This document shows positions 38,588 through 50,295 of a stretch of 64,000 bases of DNA, in pieces (positions within the stretch are counted from its first letter, which is position 1; every line of letters starts with the position of its first letter). Made by a program: the position numbers and the translations under genes. Source of the DNA: Escherichia coli (GTDB lineage Bacteria; Pseudomonadota; Gammaproteobacteria; Enterobacterales; Enterobacteriaceae); NCBI RefSeq assembly GCF_013122565.1, contig NZ_CP053258.1; one strand, written 5' to 3'. The notes under the pieces are model-generated. The model did not search any database, was not told where the DNA came from, and saw nothing but the letters and a program-made list of their open reading frames with translations.

Positions 38588-38663
38588 TGGGTCAGGATGG
38601 TTCATTTGGGCAGGTGTTCACATCAGCATCAGGCATGATTGTTCACCTGCCATGTGACAGACG

Positions 38664-38939
38664 CTATCGCACAGGATGAATAAGATAATTCGCCTTTGTC
38701 GGAAAAGGGGGCGGAATTTCTTCTGTGAGGTTTAATGGTGGCGCATCTTCTCTCATTTTTAACAAAATCGCCTGTGATGGCTGAAATTTTGTAGAGTGAG
38801 TTGTCGTCATCGCTGACGTTTTTTCCGTCTCTTTATAGCTCGCCTCACTACCACCACCAGAAATAGAAAATGCAAAAACATTGCATGCCATAATAGAGAC
38901 CAATAAAAATAAGCTAAAAAGCATTAAGTTTACTTTCAT
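38664..38939 (-). CDS. ypdI: Small secreted protein or lipoprotein YpdI
   Basis: 91-aa ORF with signal peptide MKVNLMLFSLFLLVSIMACNVFA. Confidence 0.8.
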   Translation of the reverse strand: MKVNLMLFSLFLLVSIMACNVFAFSISGGGSEASYKETEKTSAMTTTHSTKFQPSQAILLKMREDAPPLNLTEEIPPPFPTKANYLIHPVR

Positions 38940-39081
38940 AGAAAGTTATCCTGAAAATGGTTCACTGAAAACCTACGATGTTATGGCTGTATTTACATAT
39001 AATTAATCAGTATTTACATCGATATAATAAATGATATCTCTTTGTGGTATATAAGAATAGTTCTCTGTGACAGGAAGCAGA

Positions 39082-39099
39082 TTCCTACAATTGTAAGAC
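39082..39099 (+). promoter_or_regulatory. Candidate EvgA box upstream of yfdX
   Basis: TTCCTACA-AT-TGTAAGAC fits the 18-bp EvgA inverted-repeat consensus TTCPyTACA-N2-TGTAPuGAA. Confidence 0.5.
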
Positions 39100-39234
39100 T
39101 AAAATACTTCTTGCGATAATAACTACAACTGTAAGACAATCCTTTCAAAATGACCGTTGCTCTCTGATTTCTCATTTCATGCTCACCCAATATGATGGCG
39201 GCGTTTTCTAAAACTGTTAAAGAATGAGGTAAGT

Positions 39235-39870
39235 ATGAAACGTTTAATTATGGCCACGATGGTCACAGCAATTCTGGCATCTTCAACTGTATGGGCTGCT
39301 GATAATGCTCCGGTAGCGGCACAACAGCAAACTCAGCAAGTTCAGCAAACCCAGAAAACGGCAGCGGCAGCAGAGCGTATCTCTGAACAAGGTTTATATG
39401 CGATGCGTGACGTGCAGGTAGCGCGCCTGGCTCTGTTTCATGGCGATCCGGAAAAGGCAAAAGAACTGACCAATGAAGCTTCAGCTTTGTTGTCAGATGA
39501 CAGTACCGAATGGGCAAAGTTCGCTAAGCCAGGTAAAAAGACCAATCTCAATGATGACCAATATATTGTCATTAATGCATCTGTCGGAATTTCTGAGAGT
39601 TATGTAGCGACACCCGAAAAAGAAGCCGCGATAAAAATTGCCAATGAAAAAATGGCGAAAGGGGATAAAAAGGGCGCAATGGAAGAGCTTCGCCTGGCCG
39701 GTGTTGGTGTAATGGAAAACCAATATCTGATGCCGCTTAAACAGACTCGTAATGCACTTGCTGATGCGCAGAAACTGCTTGATAAAAAGCAATACTACGA
39801 GGCAAACCTGGCGCTTAAAGGTGCGGAAGATGGAATCATCGTCGATAGCGAAGCACTGTTTGTGAACTAA
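39235..39870 (+). CDS. yfdX: YfdX-family periplasmic protein (EvgA regulon)
   Basis: 211-aa ORF with signal peptide [21 protein letters not shown]. Confidence 0.88.
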
Positions 39871-40112
39871 TGCTGACAGGCAGTATATTGATGTAAAGGA
39901 TTTAACTCCCTCCAGCCGACAATTTTTTATGACCACAATACGACAGGTTGTGGTCATAAAATTATTTGGCGCTCGCGGTTCTATAAACTCGCATTTTATC
40001 TTCCTCAAAGTAAACCGCAATAACCCGTGTCATCACAAATCATTTATTATGTTATGTTTTATGGTACGCTTTAAAAAGCGTAATCATACCCTTACTTGTA
40101 AATCACCGGCGC

Positions 40113-40130
40113 TTCTTACAGTTGTAAGAA
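40113..40130 (+). promoter_or_regulatory. Candidate EvgA box upstream of frc
   Basis: TTCTTACA-GT-TGTAAGAA, near-perfect 18-bp inverted repeat matching the EvgA consensus. Confidence 0.55.
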
Positions 40131-40380
40131 TAACATCACAAATGTCGCGGCTCTCTCTGATTACCGCGAACCAATATTTATCATATTCTTCTTTTCGTCC
40201 TCACTACTTACCATGCAGAAAGGAATTGGAAGTAGCGATGAAATGATTTTCAGTACTTGATACAGGAATTTAAAAATATCGAGTGCAGCTACGACGATAT
40301 TTTGCGGATTATTTATAGAGGCGTTATGTCTTAAATAAACGCTAAATTAACACATATTTAATTAACTAATAGGTATTGCT

Positions 40381-41631
40381 ATGTCAACTCCACTTCAAGG
40401 AATTAAAGTTCTCGATTTCACCGGTGTGCAATCTGGCCCATCTTGTACTCAAATGCTGGCCTGGTTTGGCGCTGACGTCATTAAAATTGAACGTCCCGGC
40501 GTTGGTGACGTAACGCGTCACCAGCTGCGAGATATTCCTGATATCGATGCGCTTTACTTCACCATGCTTAACAGTAACAAACGTTCTATTGAATTAAATA
40601 CCAAAACAGCGGAAGGCAAAGAGGTAATGGAAAAGCTGATCCGCGAAGCTGATATCTTAGTCGAGAACTTTCATCCTGGGGCCATTGATCACATGGGCTT
40701 CACCTGGGAGCATATTCAAGAAATCAATCCACGTCTGATTTTTGGTTCGATCAAAGGGTTTGATGAGTGTTCGCCTTATGTGAATGTAAAAGCCTATGAA
40801 AACGTTGCTCAGGCAGCGGGTGGCGCGGCATCCACTACGGGTTTTTGGGACGGTCCGCCGCTGGTAAGCGCTGCAGCGTTGGGTGACAGCAACACCGGAA
40901 TGCATTTACTGATCGGTTTACTTGCTGCTTTGCTGCATCGCGAAAAAACGGGGCGTGGGCAACGAGTCACCATGTCAATGCAGGATGCCGTATTGAACCT
41001 TTGCCGCGTGAAATTACGCGACCAGCAGCGTCTCGATAAATTGGGTTATCTGGAAGAATACCCGCAGTATCCGAATGGCACATTTGGTGATGCAGTTCCC
41101 CGCGGCGGTAATGCGGGTGGTGGCGGTCAGCCTGGCTGGATCCTGAAATGTAAAGGTTGGGAAACCGATCCTAACGCCTATATTTATTTCACTATTCAGG
41201 AGCAAAACTGGGAAAACACCTGTAAAGCCATTGGCAAACCAGAATGGATTACCGATCCGGCATACAGTACAGCCCATGCCCGACAGCCACATATTTTCGA
41301 TATTTTTGCTGAAATCGAAAAATACACTGTCACTATTGATAAACATGAAGCGGTGGCCTATTTGACTCAATTTGATATTCCTTGTGCACCGGTTTTAAGT
41401 ATGAAAGAAATTTCACTTGATCCCTCTTTGCGCCAAAGTGGCAGTGTTGTCGAAGTGGAACAACCATTGCGTGGAAAATATCTGACAGTTGGTTGTCCAA
41501 TGAAATTCTCTGCCTTTACGCCGGATATTAAAGCTGCACCGCTATTAGGTGAACATACCGCTGCGGTATTGCGGGAGCTGGGTTATAGCGACGATGAAAT
41601 TGCTGCAATGAAGCAAAACCACGCCATCTGA
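40381..41631 (+). CDS. frc: Formyl-CoA:oxalate CoA-transferase
   Basis: 416-aa [46 protein letters not shown]..., family III CoA-transferase. Confidence 0.95.
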
Positions 41632-41684
41632 TATTAACGGGAGCTTCTGGCTCCCAATTTATAAAAATTTCGAGGTTATTAATC

Positions 41685-43379
41685 ATGTCAGATCAACTTC
41701 AAATGACAGATGGTATGCATATCATCGTTGAAGCATTAAAACAGAATAATATTGACACTATTTATGGTGTTGTAGGTATTCCTGTGACGGATATGGCACG
41801 CCATGCCCAGGCGGAAGGCATTCGTTATATTGGTTTTCGTCATGAGCAGTCGGCAGGCTATGCCGCTGCGGCAAGCGGTTTTCTTACCCAAAAACCGGGG
41901 ATCTGCCTGACAGTGTCTGCGCCAGGATTCCTCAATGGTTTGACCGCATTGGCCAACGCAACGGTAAATGGTTTTCCGATGATCATGATTAGCGGCTCCA
42001 GCGACCGCGCGATCGTCGACCTACAGCAAGGTGATTATGAAGAGCTGGACCAAATGAATGCGGCAAAACCGTATGCCAAAGCAGCATTTCGCGTTAATCA
42101 GCCGCAGGATCTTGGCATTGCATTGGCACGCGCTATCCGGGTCTCAGTATCGGGTCGCCCTGGCGGAGTTTATCTTGATTTGCCTGCAAATGTCCTGGCC
42201 GCGACGATGGAAAAAGACGAAGCGTTAACCACGATTGTAAAAGTTGAAAATCCGTCGCCAGCATTATTGCCATGCCCGAAGTCAGTCACTAGCGCAATTT
42301 CGCTTTTAGCAAAAGCTGAACGACCATTAGTTATCCTTGGCAAAGGCGCGGCGTATTCACAAGCTGATGAACAGCTTCGTGAATTTATTGAAAGTGCCCA
42401 GATTCCATTCCTGCCAATGTCTATGGCGAAAGGGATCCTCGAAGATACGCATCCACTTTCTGCGGCAGCTGCGCGTTCGTTTGCCCTGGCAAATGCTGAC
42501 GTTGTCATGCTTGTTGGTGCACGATTGAATTGGTTACTGGCACACGGTAAAAAAGGATGGGCGGCAGATACACAGTTTATTCAACTGGATATTGAACCGC
42601 AGGAAATTGACAGCAACCGCCCCATTGCTGTGCCAGTCGTTGGCGATATTGCATCCAGTATGCAAGGTATGCTGGCAGAACTGAAACAAAACACATTTAC
42701 GACTCCACTGGTATGGCGCGATATTTTAAATATCCACAAGCAGCAAAATGCACAAAAAATGCATGAAAAATTAAGTACAGATACCCAACCATTAAATTAC
42801 TTTAATGCATTAAGTGCTGTGCGCGATGTATTGCGCGAGAACCAGGATATTTATTTAGTTAATGAAGGTGCAAATACCCTGGATAATGCACGAAATATTA
42901 TTGATATGTATAAACCACGTCGTCGTCTGGATTGTGGTACCTGGGGTGTCATGGGTATCGGTATGGGCTATGCCATCGGTGCTAGCGTGACCTCTGGTTC
43001 TCCGGTTGTCGCTATTGAAGGTGATAGTGCTTTTGGTTTCAGTGGGATGGAGATTGAAACGATTTGTCGATATAACCTGCCGGTGACGATCGTTATTTTT
43101 AATAATGGCGGCATCTACAGAGGAGACGGTGTTGACCTCAGCGGCGCTGGTGCACCATCGCCAACGGATCTGTTGCACCATGCAAGGTATGACAAATTAA
43201 TGGATGCGTTTCGTGGCGTTGGCTATAACGTCACCACGACAGATGAACTTCGTCATGCTTTAACCACCGGAATTCAGTCGCGCAAACCGACCATTATTAA
43301 TGTGGTCATCGACCCAGCAGCAGGAACTGAAAGTGGCCATATTACCAAACTTAACCCAAAACAAGTCGCTGGTAATTAA
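41685..43379 (+). CDS. oxc: Oxalyl-CoA decarboxylase (ThDP-dependent)
   Basis: 564-aa ORF with ThDP-binding motif (GDSAFGFSGMEIETICRYNLPVTIVIFNNGG). Confidence 0.95.
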   Translation: MSDQLQMTDGMHIIVEALKQNNIDTIYGVVGIPVTDMARHAQAEGIRYIGFRHEQSAGYAAAASGFLTQKPGICLTVSAPGFLNGLTALANATVNGFPMIMISGSSDRAIVDLQQGDYEELDQMNAAKPYAKAAFRVNQPQDLGIALARAIRVSVSGRPGGVYLDLPANVLAATMEKDEALTTIVKVENPSPALLPCPKSVTSAISLLAKAERPLVILGKGAAYSQADEQLREFIESAQIPFLPMSMAKGILEDTHPLSAAAARSFALANADVVMLVGARLNWLLAHGKKGWAADTQFIQLDIEPQEIDSNRPIAVPVVGDIASSMQGMLAELKQNTFTTPLVWRDILNIHKQQNAQKMHEKLSTDTQPLNYFNALSAVRDVLRENQDIYLVNEGANTLDNARNIIDMYKPRRRLDCGTWGVMGIGMGYAIGASVTSGSPVVAIEGDSAFGFSGMEIETICRYNLPVTIVIFNNGGIYRGDGVDLSGAGAPSPTDLLHHARYDKLMDAFRGVGYNVTTTDELRHALTTGIQSRKPTIINVVIDPAAGTESGHITKLNPKQVAGN

Positions 43380-43448
43380 ATACTGACATCGTCTCCTCTT
43401 GCCAACTTATTATGCGATGGTGAGGGGACCCTTATCGGAAATACTATT

Positions 43449-44393
43449 ATGCTAACATTTTTTATTGGCGATTTATTGCCTATTATCGTAATCATGCTGT
43501 TGGGTTATTTTAGCGGCAGACGAGAAACTTTTTCAGAAGATCAAGCCCGGGCATTTAATAAACTGGTATTAAACTACGCTCTTCCTGCGGCTCTATTTGT
43601 TTCTATTACCAGGGCAAACAGGGAAATGATTTTTGCGGACACTCGTCTGACCCTTGTATCACTTGTGGTTATTGTCGGATGTTTCTTTTTCTCCTGGTTC
43701 GGTTGCTACAAATTTTTTAAACGTACTCATGCAGAAGCAGCTGTATGTGCATTAATTGCGGGTTCACCTACCATTGGATTCCTGGGGTTTGCAGTTCTCG
43801 ATCCTATTTATGGTGATTCCGTATCAACAGGTTTAGTGGTAGCAATTATTTCTATTATTGTTAACGCAATTACTATTCCTATTGGTCTGTATTTGCTGAA
43901 TCCTTCCTCAGGAGCGGATGGTAAGAAGAATAGTAATCTGAGCGCATTAATTTCTGCGGCAAAGGAGCCAGTAGTATGGGCACCTGTTCTGGCAACGATC
44001 CTGGTGTTGGTTGGGGTAAAAATTCCGGCAGCATGGGACCCAACCTTTAATCTGATTGCGAAGGCTAACTCAGGGGTAGCGGTATTCGCTGCGGGGTTGA
44101 CTCTGGCTGCACATAAATTCGAGTTCAGTGCCGAAATTGCTTATAACACCTTCCTGAAGCTGATTCTGATGCCACTGGCGCTGCTTCTCGTTGGTATGGC
44201 ATGTCATTTGAACAGCGAACATTTGCAGATGATGGTACTGGCAGGCGCATTACCGCCGGCATTCTCCGGAATCATTATTGCCAGCCGGTTTAATGTCTAC
44301 ACCCGCACTGGTACAGCGTCATTGGCTGTGAGCGTACTGGGCTTTGTCGTCACGGCTCCCTTGTGGATTTATGTCAGTCGACTGGTTTCATAA
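43449..44393 (+). CDS. yfdV: AEC-family (auxin efflux carrier-like) transporter
   Basis: 314-aa polytopic membrane ORF. Confidence 0.85.
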
Positions 44394-44420
44394 TTAATCA
44401 TGTTATTGATTTTACATAAA

Positions 44421-44454
44421 TGCCGAAGTGTCTTTTCACCTTCGGCTTTTTTCA
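44421..44454 (+). terminator. Hairpin plus T tract between yfdV and yfdE
   Basis: gccgaag-(loop)-cttcggc followed by ttttttc, 13 bp before the yfdE start. Confidence 0.45.
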
Positions 44455-44466
44455 AGGCATAAGAAA

Positions 44467-45612
44467 ATGACAAATAATGAATGTAAAGGGCCGTTTGAAG
44501 GCTTATTAGTTATCGATATGACACATGTCCTTAATGGACCTTTCGGAACTCAACTTCTTTGTAATATGGGCGCAAGGGTAATTAAAGTTGAGCCGCCGGG
44601 TCATGGTGATGATACCCGCACATTTGGTCCCTATGTGGATGGACAGTCACTCTATTACAGTTTTATTAATCATGGCAAAGAGAGTGTGGTTCTTGATTTA
44701 AAGAATGATCACGATAAAAGTATATTTATAAATATGCTTAAACAAGCTGATGTATTAGCTGAGAATTTTCGCCCAGGTACAATGGAAAAACTGGGGTTTT
44801 CATGGGAAAGGTTACAAGAAATCAACCCGCGCCTCATATATGCTTCATCGTCGGGTTTCGGGCATACCGGTCCGTTAAAAGATGCTCCTGCCTACGATAC
44901 CATTATTCAGGCAATGAGCGGGATAATGATGGAAACAGGGTACCCTGATGCTCCTCCAGTGCGTGTTGGTACCTCTCTTGCGGATCTATGCGGCGGTGTC
45001 TACTTATTCAGCGGAATCGTGAGTGCACTTTATGGCCGCGAAAAGAGCCAGAGAGGGGCGCATGTCGATATAGCGATGTTTGATGCCACGCTGAGTTTTC
45101 TGGAGCATGGTCTGATGGCATATATTGCGACAGGGAAGTCACCACAACGTCTGGGAAATCGCCATCCCTACATGGCACCTTTTGATGTTTTCGATACTCA
45201 GGATAAGCCGATTACGATTTGTTGTGGTAATGACAAGCTTTTTTCTGCGTTATGCCAGGCACTGGAGCTTACGGAACTGGTTAATGATCCCCGATTTAGC
45301 AGCAATATTTTACGTGTACAAAACCAGGCTATTCTTAAACAATATATTGAGCGGACGTTAAAAACGCAGGCAGCTGAAGTTTGGTTAGCCAAAATACATG
45401 AAGTTGGTGTGCCTGTCGCGCCGTTATTAAGTGTGGCTGAGGCCATTAATTTGCCACAAACTCAGGCGAGAAATATGTTGATTGAAGCCGGAGGAATAAT
45501 GATGCCGGGTAATCCGATAAAAATCAGCGGCTGCGCGGACCCGCATGTTATGCCGGGAGCGGCAACGCTCGACCAGCATGGGGAACAAATTCGCCAGGAG
45601 TTCTCATCATAA
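44467..45612 (+). CDS. yfdE: Acetyl-CoA:oxalate CoA-transferase (family III)
   Basis: ORF 44428-45612; start placed at MTNNECKGPFEGLLVIDMTHV; paralogous to Frc. Confidence 0.9.
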   Translation: MTNNECKGPFEGLLVIDMTHVLNGPFGTQLLCNMGARVIKVEPPGHGDDTRTFGPYVDGQSLYYSFINHGKESVVLDLKNDHDKSIFINMLKQADVLAENFRPGTMEKLGFSWERLQEINPRLIYASSSGFGHTGPLKDAPAYDTIIQAMSGIMMETGYPDAPPVRVGTSLADLCGGVYLFSGIVSALYGREKSQRGAHVDIAMFDATLSFLEHGLMAYIATGKSPQRLGNRHPYMAPFDVFDTQDKPITICCGNDKLFSALCQALELTELVNDPRFSSNILRVQNQAILKQYIERTLKTQAAEVWLAKIHEVGVPVAPLLSVAEAINLPQTQARNMLIEAGGIMMPGNPIKISGCADPHVMPGAATLDQHGEQIRQEFSS

Positions 45613-45629: not shown

Positions 45630-45670
45630 AAATAGCTCCCACATTTGAACATTGTGGGAGCCGCTATTTA
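45630..45670. terminator. Bidirectional terminator between convergent yfdE and evgS
   Basis: aaatagctcccaca...tgtgggagccgctattt extended inverted repeat. Confidence 0.55.
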
Positions 45671-48600
45671 GTCTTTTTGTTGACAGAAAACAGAAATCTC
45701 CTGGTCCAGCTCTGCAATGTGTTCTTTTACAGAGTTCAGCAACTGAAGAATTTCAGGCTTACTGTCATCTGAAACAGGTGTTATTTCTAACTGATGGCTA
45801 ATATTAATCAACTTTTGCAAATTCAGGATGTTAGCCGCACCGTGGATGCGATGAATACACTGATGGAAAGTTCTGTTATCGCCAGCTTCTAGTGCATGAA
45901 ACGCAGCGGGTAGATCTTTATGCGTTTCATGCTGGAAAGTCATGAGAATCTCCTGCATCAGTTGTAGATCGTTCGCCGTATTATTTTTCAGGGCTTCGAT
46001 ATCAAGGTGGCGATACTGAGGTGCAATATGCGCAACCTGGTGTAACTGACTTAAATGTGTTTTCAGTACATCCAGGGTCAACGGTTTGAACAAACATAAG
46101 TTCATGCCGCAATTTAACCCTTTTTCACGTTCGTTAGCCTGTGCGTTGGCAGTAAGCCCCCAGATGGGTAAGGAAGAATTTTGCTCACGGAGTTTGCGAG
46201 TCAACTCAAAACCATCCATATTCGGCATATTAACGTCAGTAATAAGCAGATCATAATGTTGCATACTGACTTTGTGTAGCGCTTGCACACCATCAGTGGC
46301 TTCATCAACATCATATCCTAATAGATTTAGCTGGCGTTTGAGTAATAGCCTGTTGGTTGGATGATCATCCGCGATTAATATGCTCAACTTTTCAGGCAGT
46401 GTGATGGGTTGTTCTGCCTTTGCCTCGACAGTCGCCACTTGTTGGATAATTTCTACCGGGATTGTGATCGTAAATGTTGTTCCTATGCCTGGATGACTTT
46501 CTAATGACAAATCGCCCTGCATGTTTTTAATTAATTCTTTGCAGATCATTAAGCCTAAACCAGAACCTGTTTGCTGACGACCTGCACTTGTTTGGCTATA
46601 ACGTTTAAACAGTTGTTGTTGTTCTTCCTGTGATAATCCACTTCCAGAATCCATAATCGTCATTTTGATTACAGCGTGGTTGTCATCAATGTGAACCAGG
46701 GAGGTCGTAATTTTTACTGCCCCCTCGGTGGTAAATTTGAGAGCATTGCTCAGTAAATTAGATAAGACCTGCTTAAACGCCTGAGGGTCGATCTTAACCA
46801 GGTAATGTTCAGGAAACGTACTGCTGCAACTTAATGCGATCGATTTGCTTGCAGCAATCGCACCGAAAGAGTGACAAGTGTTCTGGACTAAAGTAGGGAT
46901 ATCGACCCATTGTGGTTGAAGTTGATAGTTACCCGATTCAATTTTGTCGACATCAAGGATTTCACCAATTAAGCCGAGGAGTGATTGTCCGGTGGCGTAG
47001 GCAAGTGAAATCGCCTCCACCCGTTGCTCCTTGCTAAGACCAGAACCCGACAGAAGTTCCAGGAAGCCCATAATGGAGCTTATTGGTGTTCTTATTTCGT
47101 GACTCATTGTTGCCAGAAACTGGCTTTTTGCGACAGTTGCATTGATCGCTTTATTTCTCTCTACTTCGAGTGCATGAATTAAATCACGCGTCTCGGTAAT
47201 ATCTTGCCAACCACAAATATAAACAGCATGATCGCTGGCTGGCAGATTGCATAATGTATGCCAGTGATTAATGCATCTTTTCTCGATGCCATTATCAATT
47301 TCAAATACCTGTGTGTATATTGTTCGATTTTCTTTCGTTTCTGCTGTGACTTCATGCGCATTAGAAAAAACATCTTTAAAGGGGGAGTCACTGTTTTCTA
47401 ATGGTAACATTGCATTTTTGTAGTAATCCGCAGTGAAATAATGTTCAAAAGCACTATTATGACTAATGACATTACCTTGCCAGTTTACAACATAAGTTGG
47501 ATTCGGTAAGGAATCCGAGAGTGCTTTCCGGAATGATATTTGGTTTTCTAAATCACCCTGAATGACTTTACGACGACGAACTGAGCGTAACAGGTAGAAT
47601 CCCCATAAAAGGCTACTGCCAACTAATAAAACGGATAATGTCGTAACAATATAAAATTGCTCGCTATAGAGGTCCCATGTGTCAATGGTCACATTGGGCA
47701 TTTTAATCCATTTTTCCGTCAGGCGCAGAACTTCGCTTGGGGGAATTGCATTCAGTGCTTTATTAATAATATCCTTAAGTTCTGGTTCTCCACGAGGAAA
47801 AGCGAACGAAAGCGATGCATTCGGAACGCCAGGAATAAGAAAATGATAAAGCTCATTAGGATAGTAATGGTCGATCATATAACGCGAATTTAGCTGTGTC
47901 GCGACCAGAGCATCAAGTTCACCTTCCTTAACCTTGTGAAATGCAGCGCTGGCATTATCGACTTGTATCCACTCAACCTCCGGATACATCTCTTTTAATT
48001 GCGAATGCAGCTCATAATAATATGGAATGGCAACTTTCATTCCTTTTTTTAATGTTTGTTCACTGTCAGGCGCTTTTTGCATGACAAAAACGTATGGTGT
48101 TGTTATGAAAGCTTCTGCAAATGAAACATTATTTTCTCGATCTTCACTATAAATAGCGCCAGGTATTATATCCCATCCACCGGGGCTAAGCTGTGTTCCG
48201 GCATGGATATTGTGTGAAACGGTGATCGGAGAAAAATTTAAACCTGTTTGCAAGGTAATAATATTAAGAATATCCCCCATAACGCCCCGAACCGAGCCAT
48301 TTTCATCCGTCATAGAATAGGGAGGAGAGTAAGGATTTTCCAGCACCTTTAAATCGGGATGTTGTTTAATCCACTGTTTTTCATGTTCAGTGAGTTCTAA
48401 TGGTTTGTTCAGAAAGGCCAGGTTTCCTGTATCAAGCCAATTTTGTGATACTTCATAGCGAACTTCATTTGTTAAAGCATCAACAAATCTATTGAGTACT
48501 TCATTAAGAATGACAGATTCTTTTCTGGTCAAGAAAAAATTATATTGACGCGGCGAGTTATAATATTTCACTACATTTAAGGAGTGAGTGAAATAGCGGG

Positions 48601-49261
48601 AAATCATACTGCTGGTAATGATGTTACTACCAATAAAGTAATCATTCTGTCCGGCTGATACGGATGCTAATGCCTGATATAAATTTGTAAAAGAGATAAT
48701 TGTTGCTTTTGGAAATGATTGATGAATTACCTCGTCTGGGGGGTAATTTGCTACCCGAGCAATATTTACTGGTTTTGGTGAGGTAAGCGGTCGCATTGAG
48801 TCGTGAAGGGTGGTTACCAGCGCCGGAAAGGTAATTATCAATGGTTTGGTTGCAGCAATGTCATTATTAAGAGGCGGCGAAGTAACTAAATGTGATAACA
48901 CTATATCGACTTCACCTTCTGTAAGCGCGTCCATTGCTTTTTGATGATCTGCGTATTCCCGGAGTGTTAATTTGATATTTAACGCTCTTTTTAAAAGATT
49001 TAAATAATCAGCATTAATACCACGAACCTGTTGCTGCGAATCGGTATGCAACAACGTAGCCGTTTGGGACTTGTGTACTGCAATCACAAGATTTTTTTTG
49101 CTCGCTAACCAACGTAATTCCTTGTTGCTCAGACGTACTGGATCAAGTGTGACACGGTTGTTACTACTGATGCCACGATATTCGATGTAATCTTCGTCTG
49201 CGAAACTTATGGTCGACCAAAGACTACAACAGAGAAGAAAAAAATAGGGTAAAAACTTCAT
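45668..49261 (-). CDS. evgS: Hybrid sensor histidine kinase EvgS (tandem periplasmic binding domains, PAS, HisKA, receiver, HPt)
   Basis: 1197-aa ORF with signal peptide, H-box SHEIRTPISSIMGFLELL, receiver ILIADDHPTNRLL and C-terminal HPt. Confidence 0.96.
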   Translation of the reverse strand: MKFLPYFFLLCCSLWSTISFADEDYIEYRGISSNNRVTLDPVRLSNKELRWLASKKNLVIAVHKSQTATLLHTDSQQQVRGINADYLNLLKRALNIKLTLREYADHQKAMDALTEGEVDIVLSHLVTSPPLNNDIAATKPLIITFPALVTTLHDSMRPLTSPKPVNIARVANYPPDEVIHQSFPKATIISFTNLYQALASVSAGQNDYFIGSNIITSSMISRYFTHSLNVVKYYNSPRQYNFFLTRKESVILNEVLNRFVDALTNEVRYEVSQNWLDTGNLAFLNKPLELTEHEKQWIKQHPDLKVLENPYSPPYSMTDENGSVRGVMGDILNIITLQTGLNFSPITVSHNIHAGTQLSPGGWDIIPGAIYSEDRENNVSFAEAFITTPYVFVMQKAPDSEQTLKKGMKVAIPYYYELHSQLKEMYPEVEWIQVDNASAAFHKVKEGELDALVATQLNSRYMIDHYYPNELYHFLIPGVPNASLSFAFPRGEPELKDIINKALNAIPPSEVLRLTEKWIKMPNVTIDTWDLYSEQFYIVTTLSVLLVGSSLLWGFYLLRSVRRRKVIQGDLENQISFRKALSDSLPNPTYVVNWQGNVISHNSAFEHYFTADYYKNAMLPLENSDSPFKDVFSNAHEVTAETKENRTIYTQVFEIDNGIEKRCINHWHTLCNLPASDHAVYICGWQDITETRDLIHALEVERNKAINATVAKSQFLATMSHEIRTPISSIMGFLELLSGSGLSKEQRVEAISLAYATGQSLLGLIGEILDVDKIESGNYQLQPQWVDIPTLVQNTCHSFGAIAASKSIALSCSSTFPEHYLVKIDPQAFKQVLSNLLSNALKFTTEGAVKITTSLVHIDDNHAVIKMTIMDSGSGLSQEEQQQLFKRYSQTSAGRQQTGSGLGLMICKELIKNMQGDLSLESHPGIGTTFTITIPVEIIQQVATVEAKAEQPITLPEKLSILIADDHPTNRLLLKRQLNLLGYDVDEATDGVQALHKVSMQHYDLLITDVNMPNMDGFELTRKLREQNSSLPIWGLTANAQANEREKGLNCGMNLCLFKPLTLDVLKTHLSQLHQVAHIAPQYRHLDIEALKNNTANDLQLMQEILMTFQHETHKDLPAAFHALEAGDNRTFHQCIHRIHGAANILNLQKLINISHQLEITPVSDDSKPEILQLLNSVKEHIAELDQEISVFCQQKD

Positions 49262-49265
49262 GTGA

Positions 49266-49880
49266 TTAGCCGATTTTGTTACGTTGCGCGAATGTGTAAA
49301 GATCCATCAGTGATTTACATTCTAATTTTTCCATCAGGCGACTTTTATACGTGCTGACAGTTTTGTTGCTGATGAACATTTTTTCCGCAATGTCATTATT
49401 ATCCTTGCCATCAAGAATATACCTCATGACACTAATTTCTTGTTTCGATAAGGAGTCGAGTTTTTGCTGGTCGGACGTTAAACTTCCAACAAACCGGTTG
49501 AGAGAGAAGGGGAAATAGCAGTAGCCATTTTTTGCAGCTTCAATAGCCGCAATGATATTGTTCATGCCTTCTTTTTTACTCACGAATCCATTAGCGCCAG
49601 CATCAGCACAATGTTTCCCGTAAAAATGGTCATTTTTAGCGGAGACAATAATAATAATTCCGCTATATTGGCGCTTCCTCAGCGTTTCTAACACCTGGAT
49701 ACCGTTAACTCCGGGGATATCGACATCAATGATGACGATATCAGGCTTAAGTGTTTCCACCCGCTGAACGGCGCTTCCCCCTTCAGTCAACTCCGCTAAG
49801 ATTTCAATATCGTTTTTGATCAATAGATTACGAATTGCTGCGATAGCAAGAGGATGGTCATCAATAATTATTGCGTTCAT
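49266..49880 (-). CDS. evgA: Response regulator EvgA (NarL/FixJ family)
   Basis: 204-aa ORF MNAIIIDDHPLAIAAIRNLL... with LuxR-type HTH. Confidence 0.96.
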   Translation of the reverse strand: MNAIIIDDHPLAIAAIRNLLIKNDIEILAELTEGGSAVQRVETLKPDIVIIDVDIPGVNGIQVLETLRKRQYSGIIIIVSAKNDHFYGKHCADAGANGFVSKKEGMNNIIAAIEAAKNGYCYFPFSLNRFVGSLTSDQQKLDSLSKQEISVMRYILDGKDNNDIAEKMFISNKTVSTYKSRLMEKLECKSLMDLYTFAQRNKIG

Positions 49881-50104
49881 AGATTATTCCCTTTGCAATG
49901 AAGCATCTCCCTTCTCCCTGTAGTAATACAGACATAAGGCGTCATCTCATTTTCTCAATAAAAATAAGAAAATCCGAGCTTCCTTTAAGATAATTCGAAA
50001 AGTATACCATATAAATAGTCGGCATAAATGAAATGTCAACAATAAAATTAGGGATTATACCGATGATTTATAGTTTCAAGTTAGCACTATAAGTCTTCTC
50101 ACTA

Positions 50105-50122: not shown

Positions 50123-50295
50123 TTGTATTGCAAAGGCCACGGTTTAGTCCTCTGTTGTTTTTTTTGCACCTCATTTAAATTAGGCCTCCAACGTTCCTGG
50201 GATAATGTGCAACACATGCACTGTGTTTGATATGAAGAATGAATATTCTTTTCATTCAATTCATAAATTTCATCTACGCGAAATGAGAGATAATA

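Follow-up and report, generated by a model that had tools for sequence, protein, structure and literature searches.

The DNA analysed here, a stretch of 64,000 nucleotides (nt) on Escherichia coli contig NZ_CP053258.1 referred to below as the window, contains the gene yfdX, the oxalate operon frc-oxc-yfdV-yfdE and the genes evgS and evgA, which code for EvgS/EvgA, a two-component system; the elements under study are 18-bp inverted repeats upstream of yfdX and of frc, considered as operator sites of EvgA. The gene order of strain K-12 is kept, and reads fryA, ypdCBA, alaC, lpxP, yfdY, ypdI (minus strand), yfdX (plus), frc-oxc-yfdV-yfdE (plus), evgS-evgA (minus) and emrK. Among complete genomes of E. 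coli, 5,421 out of 5,426 contain a match to the region at 95-99% identity, and ypdI, yfdX and frc are the genes named under the match by the RefSeq annotation of these genomes. EvgA, EvgS, Frc, Oxc, YfdV and YfdE score above the curated cut-offs of NCBIfam equivalog models (cut-offs of 251 bits for EvgA and 1995 bits for EvgS), and yfdX is recognised by a YfdX-family model. The genes of the cognate regulator, evgS and evgA, are intact and adjacent, and lie downstream of the frc box at a distance of 5.5 kb.

The window was scanned with the pattern TTCYTACANNTGTARGAA (TTCYTACA-N2-TGTARGAA), by allowing up to three mismatches, and 100 dinucleotide-preserving shuffles were used as a null. Four matches were found, as opposed to 0.74 +/- 0.85 in the shuffled sequences, none of which reached four. 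Two matches are located upstream of yfdX and are called box 1, distal to the gene, and box 3, proximal to it; one precedes frc and one lies in the evgA-emrK spacer (Table 1). Box 1 is placed 135 nt before the yfdX start codon and 142 nt before that of ypdI. The first-pass annotation, made by reading the sequence, had reported box 1 and the frc box at exactly these coordinates. It had also described a third, half-site-only copy at 39122-39139, 23 bp after the first. This copy is real, but its register was off by two bases, since tacaactgtaagac lies at 39124-39137 and the whole 18-mer at 39120-39137; the gap from box 1 is 20 nt (38 nt from start to start), and both half-site cores are kept (CTACA-N2-TGTAAG). 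Box 3, judged by its letters, is a degenerate full dyad and not a half-site.

A weight-matrix scan, which had been suggested as a check in the first-pass annotation, was carried out with a symmetrised matrix built from four other EvgA targets only, namely safA, ydeP and yegR of K-12, and emrK. Within the whole window, the frc box ranks second, box 1 third and box 3 fourth. In 30 shuffled windows the top score was 11.2 bits on average and 14.0 bits at most; the frc box and box 1 exceed every one of these maxima, and these two sites can be taken to stand on sequence alone. Sequences matching the pattern are also found upstream of the K-12 genes safA (one mismatch), ydeP (two) and yegR (one). The sole match in the K-12 gadE region, located inside mdtE and carrying two mismatches, is probably due to chance and was left unused.

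Table 1. Position of boxes, promoter elements and genes within the window. Mismatches refer to the pattern described in the text; scores of boxes are weight-matrix scores, those of genes are NCBIfam model scores.
Feature	Position	Strand	Details
ypdI (91 aa lipoprotein)	38664-38939	-	Divergent from yfdX; annotation of matching genomes
Hypothetical EvgA-dependent ypdI promoter	39024-39056	-	TCTTAT (39056-39051), ATACCA (39050-39045), 15 nt, TATTAT (39029-39024)
EvgA box 1 (distal to yfdX), TTCCTACAATTGTAAGAC	39082-39099	none	1 mismatch; 14.4 bits
EvgA box 3 (proximal to yfdX), TAACTACAACTGTAAGAC	39120-39137	+	3 mismatches; 8.9 bits
TCTGAT second element of yfdX, within CTCTCTGATT (39160-39169)	39163-39168	+	26 nt after box 3; six-promoter alignment
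Predicted yfdX core promoter	39169-39196	+	TTCTCA, 16 nt, TATGAT; promoter scan; predicted start ~39203
yfdX (211 aa)	39235-39870	+	NF007645, 379 bits
Intrinsic-terminator-like hairpin 3' of yfdX	39925-39961	+	14-15 bp perfect stem, then UUAUUU
EvgA box of frc promoter, TTCTTACAGTTGTAAGAA	40113-40130	+	0 mismatches; 22.2 bits; 250 nt before frc ATG
TCTGAT second element of frc, within CTCTCTGATT (40153-40162)	40156-40161	+	26 nt after frc box
Predicted frc -10, TATTCT	40184-40189	+	Geometry common with yfdX; TATTAT in the contig labelled Yersinia vastinensis
frc-oxc-yfdV-yfdE	40381-45612	+	Formyl-CoA transferase, oxalyl-CoA decarboxylase, transporter, acetyl-CoA:oxalate CoA-transferase; NCBIfam and annotation
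evgS	45668-49261	-	NF007420, 2881 bits; cognate two-component system
evgA	49266-49880	-	NF007419, 438 bits; cognate two-component system
EvgA box, evgA-emrK spacer, ATCCTACAGGCGTAAGAA	50105-50122	+	2 mismatches

Six promoters, those of yfdX (with box 3), frc, emrK, safA, ydeP and yegR, were anchored on their 18-mers and aligned in the direction of the gene. A second conserved element, referred to as TCYNAT, begins 26 nt after the box in all six: yfdX and frc have TCTGAT, safA and yegR have TCCTAT, ydeP has TCTTAT and emrK has TCCTCT, and the copies contained in the window start at 39163, 40156 and, for emrK, at 50148 (50148-50153). The best window of eight columns carries 7.2 bits; none of 5000 circular-shift nulls, in which the register is shuffled, reached this value or exceeded 5.3 bits, and the signal survives when both yfdX and frc are left out. 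When box 1 replaces box 3 as the yfdX anchor, the shared signal falls from 7.2 to 5.8 bits. In the resulting layout, the box is separated by 25 nt from TCYNAT, which is followed by a six-base slot at the place of the -35 element, by 15-16 nt and by a -10-like hexamer; for frc, the last three parts are TACCGC, 16 nt and TATTCT (40162-40189). The centres of the yfdX and frc boxes fall about 62.5 bp before the -10, and would be located around -74.5 from transcription starts predicted at about 39203 for yfdX and about 40196 for frc, the latter leaving a putative leader of about 185 nt.

The promoter position so defined was derived in the present analysis and is not a published definition. It is occupied by box 3 and by the frc box, while box 1 takes it only when read on the minus strand, in the direction of ypdI. 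The yfdX box in the shared register accordingly appears to be box 3, the weakest copy, and box 1 an extra upstream site; the first-pass annotation was right in placing EvgA sites upstream of yfdX, but had taken the copy at 39082-39099 as the yfdX box, instead of that at 39120-39137. The TCYNAT element resembles an EvgA half-site (TCCTA), and lies 42 bp, corresponding to four helical turns, away from the dyad's left half. It may act as a contact point or, by analogy with BvgA in Bordetella, as an additional, low-affinity EvgA half-site beside the -35 region.

Additional motifs were observed around the boxes. Both the emrK and the safA box are preceded by ACTATAAG, at positions -19 to -12 relative to the 18-mer (50086-50093 in the window), which on the other strand resembles a further half-site (CTTATAG). 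A sigma-70-like sequence, TTGTAA, 18 nt, (TG)GATAAT, is found at 39091-39120, where it shares bases with the right half of box 1 and extends as far as box 3; it may be a chance occurrence, as the scan returned six promoter-like sites against 4.5 expected.

Variation within the species was evaluated by aligning the 295-bp ypdI-yfdX spacer of nine E. coli sequences. Among its 57 variable columns, a single one, at spacer base 39091, falls within box 1, while those within box 3 are limited to position 39121, to spacer bases 39128-29 and to the last base, 39137; the whole segment 39159-39199 is invariant. The half-sites of the frc box do not vary either, and its 2-nt spacer does (GT or GC). Changes among the nine sequences are confined to the N2 spacer and to outer positions, as expected for purifying selection acting on the half-sites, and the proximal site is conserved in Buttiauxella, as described below.

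More distant loci were collected by a YfdX-locus search based on one genome per species, which produced one E. coli representative (L006), a locus (L007) from a contig bearing the label Yersinia vastinensis, and six loci of Buttiauxella (L008-L013); other Escherichia species were not recovered by this search, and the depth of conservation covered is correspondingly limited. L007 contains a diverged yfdX-frc-oxc region (amino acid identities of 83% for YfdX, 96% for Frc and 91% for Oxc), in which all three dyads are kept at the same 38-bp spacing, with box 1 degraded in both cores. Upstream of its frc, near-perfect conservation covers the segment reaching from the box to CTCTCTGATTAC inclusive, with CG as spacer of the box; the -10 is kept or improved, as TATTAT, while flanks and intervening spacer have diverged. 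An alternative frc -10, TATCAT (40179-40184), is lost in L007, and TATTCT was preferred. The presence of yfdX-frc-oxc in this contig points either to horizontal transfer or to a contig that is contaminated or bears a wrong label.

The Buttiauxella loci share with the window the position of the proximal dyad and its spacing to TCTGAT and to the -10: 25 nt separate the dyad from TCTGAT, after which come six bases, a 16-nt spacer and TATTCT. They differ from it in having a G for T at position 5 of the half-site, and in lacking box 1, ypdI and the frc-oxc operon: yfdX adjoins a convergent evgS homologue, and frc-oxc-yfdV-yfdE are not found in between. Three of the six loci have TTCTGACA-N2-TGTAAGAC as their single dyad, which is more degenerate in two others and in the remaining one falls below the limit of a scan allowing five mismatches. 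From E. coli to Buttiauxella the box 3 core ACA..TGT.(A/G)GA is invariant, as are CTCTGAT, also in L007, and the TAT of the yfdX -10. Since Buttiauxella has only the dyad at the position of box 3, the proximal site and its geometry are taken as ancestral, and box 1 as added later. The linkage between yfdX and evgAS also looks older than the position occupied by the oxalate operon in Escherichia. One further YfdX sequence (L014), found in an assembly of Limosilactobacillus vaginalis on a contig of 241 bp, matches the 54 C-terminal residues of E. coli YfdX at 100% identity and is almost certainly an assembly contamination.

Literature data connect these sites to EvgA. PMC3720670, which cites Masuda & Church 2003, marks inverted repeats bound by EvgA as inducing yfdX and yfdWUVE separately. 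The yfdX promoter, studied as a PyfdX reporter, is a direct target of activation by EvgA in its phosphorylated form (PMC5706723), and the expression of yfdX, frc, oxc and yfdV is induced by acid (PMC10746267). In a mutant with constitutively active EvgS, frc is the most induced gene, and EvgA sites are found only at already known targets (PMC4283999); the log2 inductions reported in the supplement are 8.37 for frc, 7.75 for yegR, 6.97 for yfdX and 2.75 for ypdI. The yfdX and frc boxes are therefore located upstream of genes whose induction has been published. A literature search for chromatin immunoprecipitation (ChIP) or DNA affinity purification (DAP) data on EvgA or ypdI returned none that were relevant. 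EvgA binding and the EvgA-dependent induction of yfdX and frc are thus drawn from the literature, whereas sequences, statistics, conservation, geometry, terminator and gene identities result from the present analysis. On the combined evidence, the repeats are very probably EvgA operator sites belonging to the E. coli acid-response regulon.

The corresponding mechanism can be outlined as follows. Mild acid activates the hybrid kinase EvgS, by which EvgA, a protein with a NarL/FixJ-type helix-turn-helix, is phosphorylated; a dimer of EvgA would then bind the 18-bp dyad. The dyad is centred some 74-75 bp upstream of the predicted start of a sigma-70 promoter, which has a recognisable -10 but a poor -35 and would be activated by EvgA.

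The yfdX-frc interval also contains the elements expected if the two genes are transcribed separately. The hairpin predicted downstream of yfdX has a folding energy of -25.7 kcal/mol (z -7.7), no shuffled sequence folds equally well, and its stem is identical in L007, where the flanks diverge. This terminator-like hairpin, together with the box and promoter block that frc has of its own, indicates that yfdX and frc-oxc-yfdV-yfdE are wired separately, all these elements being predicted ones. That both are separately connected to the adjacent EvgS/EvgA system, as proposed in the first-pass annotation, is borne out by their own boxes, by the intervening terminator, by the gene identities and by the literature, and the presence of two transcription units, neither of which depends on the box or promoter of the other, is supported. 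RNA elements were also searched for in the spacers and in the putative frc leader, and no Rfam family was detected beyond two microRNA matches below threshold. A structured leader RNA was rejected for frc (fold z of -1.27, with an alignment devoid of convincing covariation), as was, for lack of a conserved start codon in L007, a 15-codon upstream open reading frame (about 40214-40261).

Half-sites recognised by NarL/FixJ-family regulators are similar to each other, and the repeats could in principle be operators of a different member of the family, such as RcsB, if not palindromes formed by chance. RcsB does control yfdX in Klebsiella pneumoniae (PMC6394985), but the motif given for it, KMRGAWTMWYCTGS, is unlike the EvgA dyad. 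Chance is ruled out by the pattern scan, by the weight matrix and by the pattern of conservation; in addition, the same dyad is present at the independent EvgA targets safA, ydeP, yegR and emrK, and the yfdX and frc sites are assigned to EvgA in the literature. Either explanation is regarded as extremely improbable. A slightly less remote alternative, though still quite improbable, makes one operon of the five genes yfdX-frc-oxc-yfdV-yfdE, all served by the yfdX promoter, and the repeat close to frc would contribute little. The genes are co-oriented and co-induced, and the name 'yfdXWUVE operon' is used in several papers. This arrangement is difficult to reconcile with the strong, conserved terminator hairpin between yfdX and frc; with the frc box being a perfect consensus and the highest scoring of the yfdX and frc boxes; with the conservation of its box-to-promoter block in L007 amid diverged flanks; with the induction of frc in evgS-constitutive cells, higher than that of yfdX; and with the two separate sites, for yfdX and yfdWUVE, marked in PMC3720670. 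EvgA operators serving two transcription units are consequently the reading retained here. Three points nevertheless weigh against it. Some papers treat yfdXWUVE as one operon, and some read-through from yfdX into frc is possible; box 3, taken alone, is within the range of chance for a scan of 64 kb, its score being lower than the average shuffled maximum, and is backed by position and conservation rather than significant by its own score; and the promoter positions are predictions.

A different question is which gene box 1 serves. It may chiefly activate a divergent, EvgA-dependent ypdI promoter, leaving box 3 to drive yfdX, so that the spacer would hold two promoters back-to-back instead of a single one with two sites; this arrangement is tentatively considered as possible. 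On the minus strand, TCTTAT, the sequence that the element has in ydeP, occurs at +26 from box 1, and ATACCA, 15 nt and TATTAT come after it, the two hexamers TCTTAT and TATTAT being invariant in the nine E. coli sequences. Scored at fixed offsets with the six-promoter profile, the ypdI-ward side reaches 5.84, within the leave-one-out range of the reference promoters (4.6-12.7), with an empirical p of 0.0016, which refers to one site after five orientations had been examined. Scores are negative for the forward side of box 1, for box 3 and the frc box read backwards, and for the emrK box read toward evgA; in the last three cases the downstream element is absent. The drop of the shared signal observed when box 1 is used as plus-strand anchor points in the same direction, as does the distance of 38 bp between the centres of boxes 1 and 3, which amounts to about 3.6 helical turns and is out of phase for a simple side-by-side cooperation. 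Expression data are also compatible, since ypdI is up-regulated in the evgS-constitutive strain (PMC4283999 supplement), and by 5.5-fold, together with yfdX, yegR, ydeO, emrK, frc and oxc, upon exposure to glutathione (PMC5811628). The induction of ypdI in evgS-constitutive cells is, however, far below that of yfdX (log2 of 2.75 versus 6.97) and could be indirect, and neither a ypdI transcription start nor an EvgA dependence of the gene was found in the accessible literature. Phylogeny can be read both ways: Buttiauxella lacks both ypdI and box 1, and in L007, also devoid of ypdI, box 1 is degraded in both cores, but is still recognisable. Finally, a symmetric dyad could serve both directions or merely raise EvgA occupancy for yfdX. 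On the sequence evidence, box 1 may be the operator of a divergent ypdI promoter, a proposal considered rather less likely than even. It is more doubtful still, and on the whole unlikely, that a fixed, extended EvgA promoter architecture directs the weak dyad to drive yfdX and the strong one to drive ypdI, a colanic-acid lipoprotein gene.

The sites described here can be compared to known systems. The K-12 boxes of ydeP, safA-ydeO, yegR and emrKY, corresponding to the repeat of Masuda & Church 2003, have the same dyad and the same distances to TCYNAT and to the -10. They respond to the same regulator, encoded next door in the window, and the yfdX and frc sites are listed in the literature as members of the same set. 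Nothing essential differs, except that yfdX is unusual in being preceded by two dyads at a distance of 38 bp: the canonical register is taken by the weaker one, and the stronger one is directed, by its geometry, toward ypdI.

The closest characterised homologue of EvgA is BvgA, which acts at the vir-activated promoters of Bordetella, such as fha. The two are similar in recognising inverted, heptad-like half-sites (TTTCCTA for BvgA, TTCCTAC for EvgA) and in the arrangement of their promoters, which have a high-affinity dyad far upstream and further weak, half-site-like elements toward the -35 region. Organism and regulon are different; in the promoters analysed here, conservation of half-site-like elements downstream of the dyad is limited to TCYNAT, and an oligomerisation of EvgA along the DNA finds no support in them.

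Some features of the window itself were also recorded. At positions 38600-40400, an identity of 99% or more is reached by only seven complete E. coli genomes out of about 5,400, while K-12-like strains are about 97.3% identical; the source of the window appears to be an uncommon E. coli lineage. The closest genome is that of PT62, from a pigeon, which carries an IS1 inserted in ypdI. Within yfdX, three tandem 9-bp repeats of the CAGCAA type (39325-39357) encode a glutamine-rich stretch following the signal peptide; yfdX is 636 bp long here and 633 bp in several strains, a difference which might be explained by variation in the length of these repeats.

The separate wiring of yfdX and of the oxalate operon to EvgS/EvgA is already published and is part of the textbook acid-resistance network; in this respect, the locus is of practical use as a positive control when motifs are read. 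A small addition to this known wiring is the rule on positions within EvgA promoters. It re-assigns the dyad serving yfdX, a widely used EvgA reporter promoter, and would matter modestly for building and interpreting PyfdX reporters and models of the EvgA regulon. If the divergent promoter suggested for box 1 is true, ypdI would be an unrecognised direct member of that regulon.

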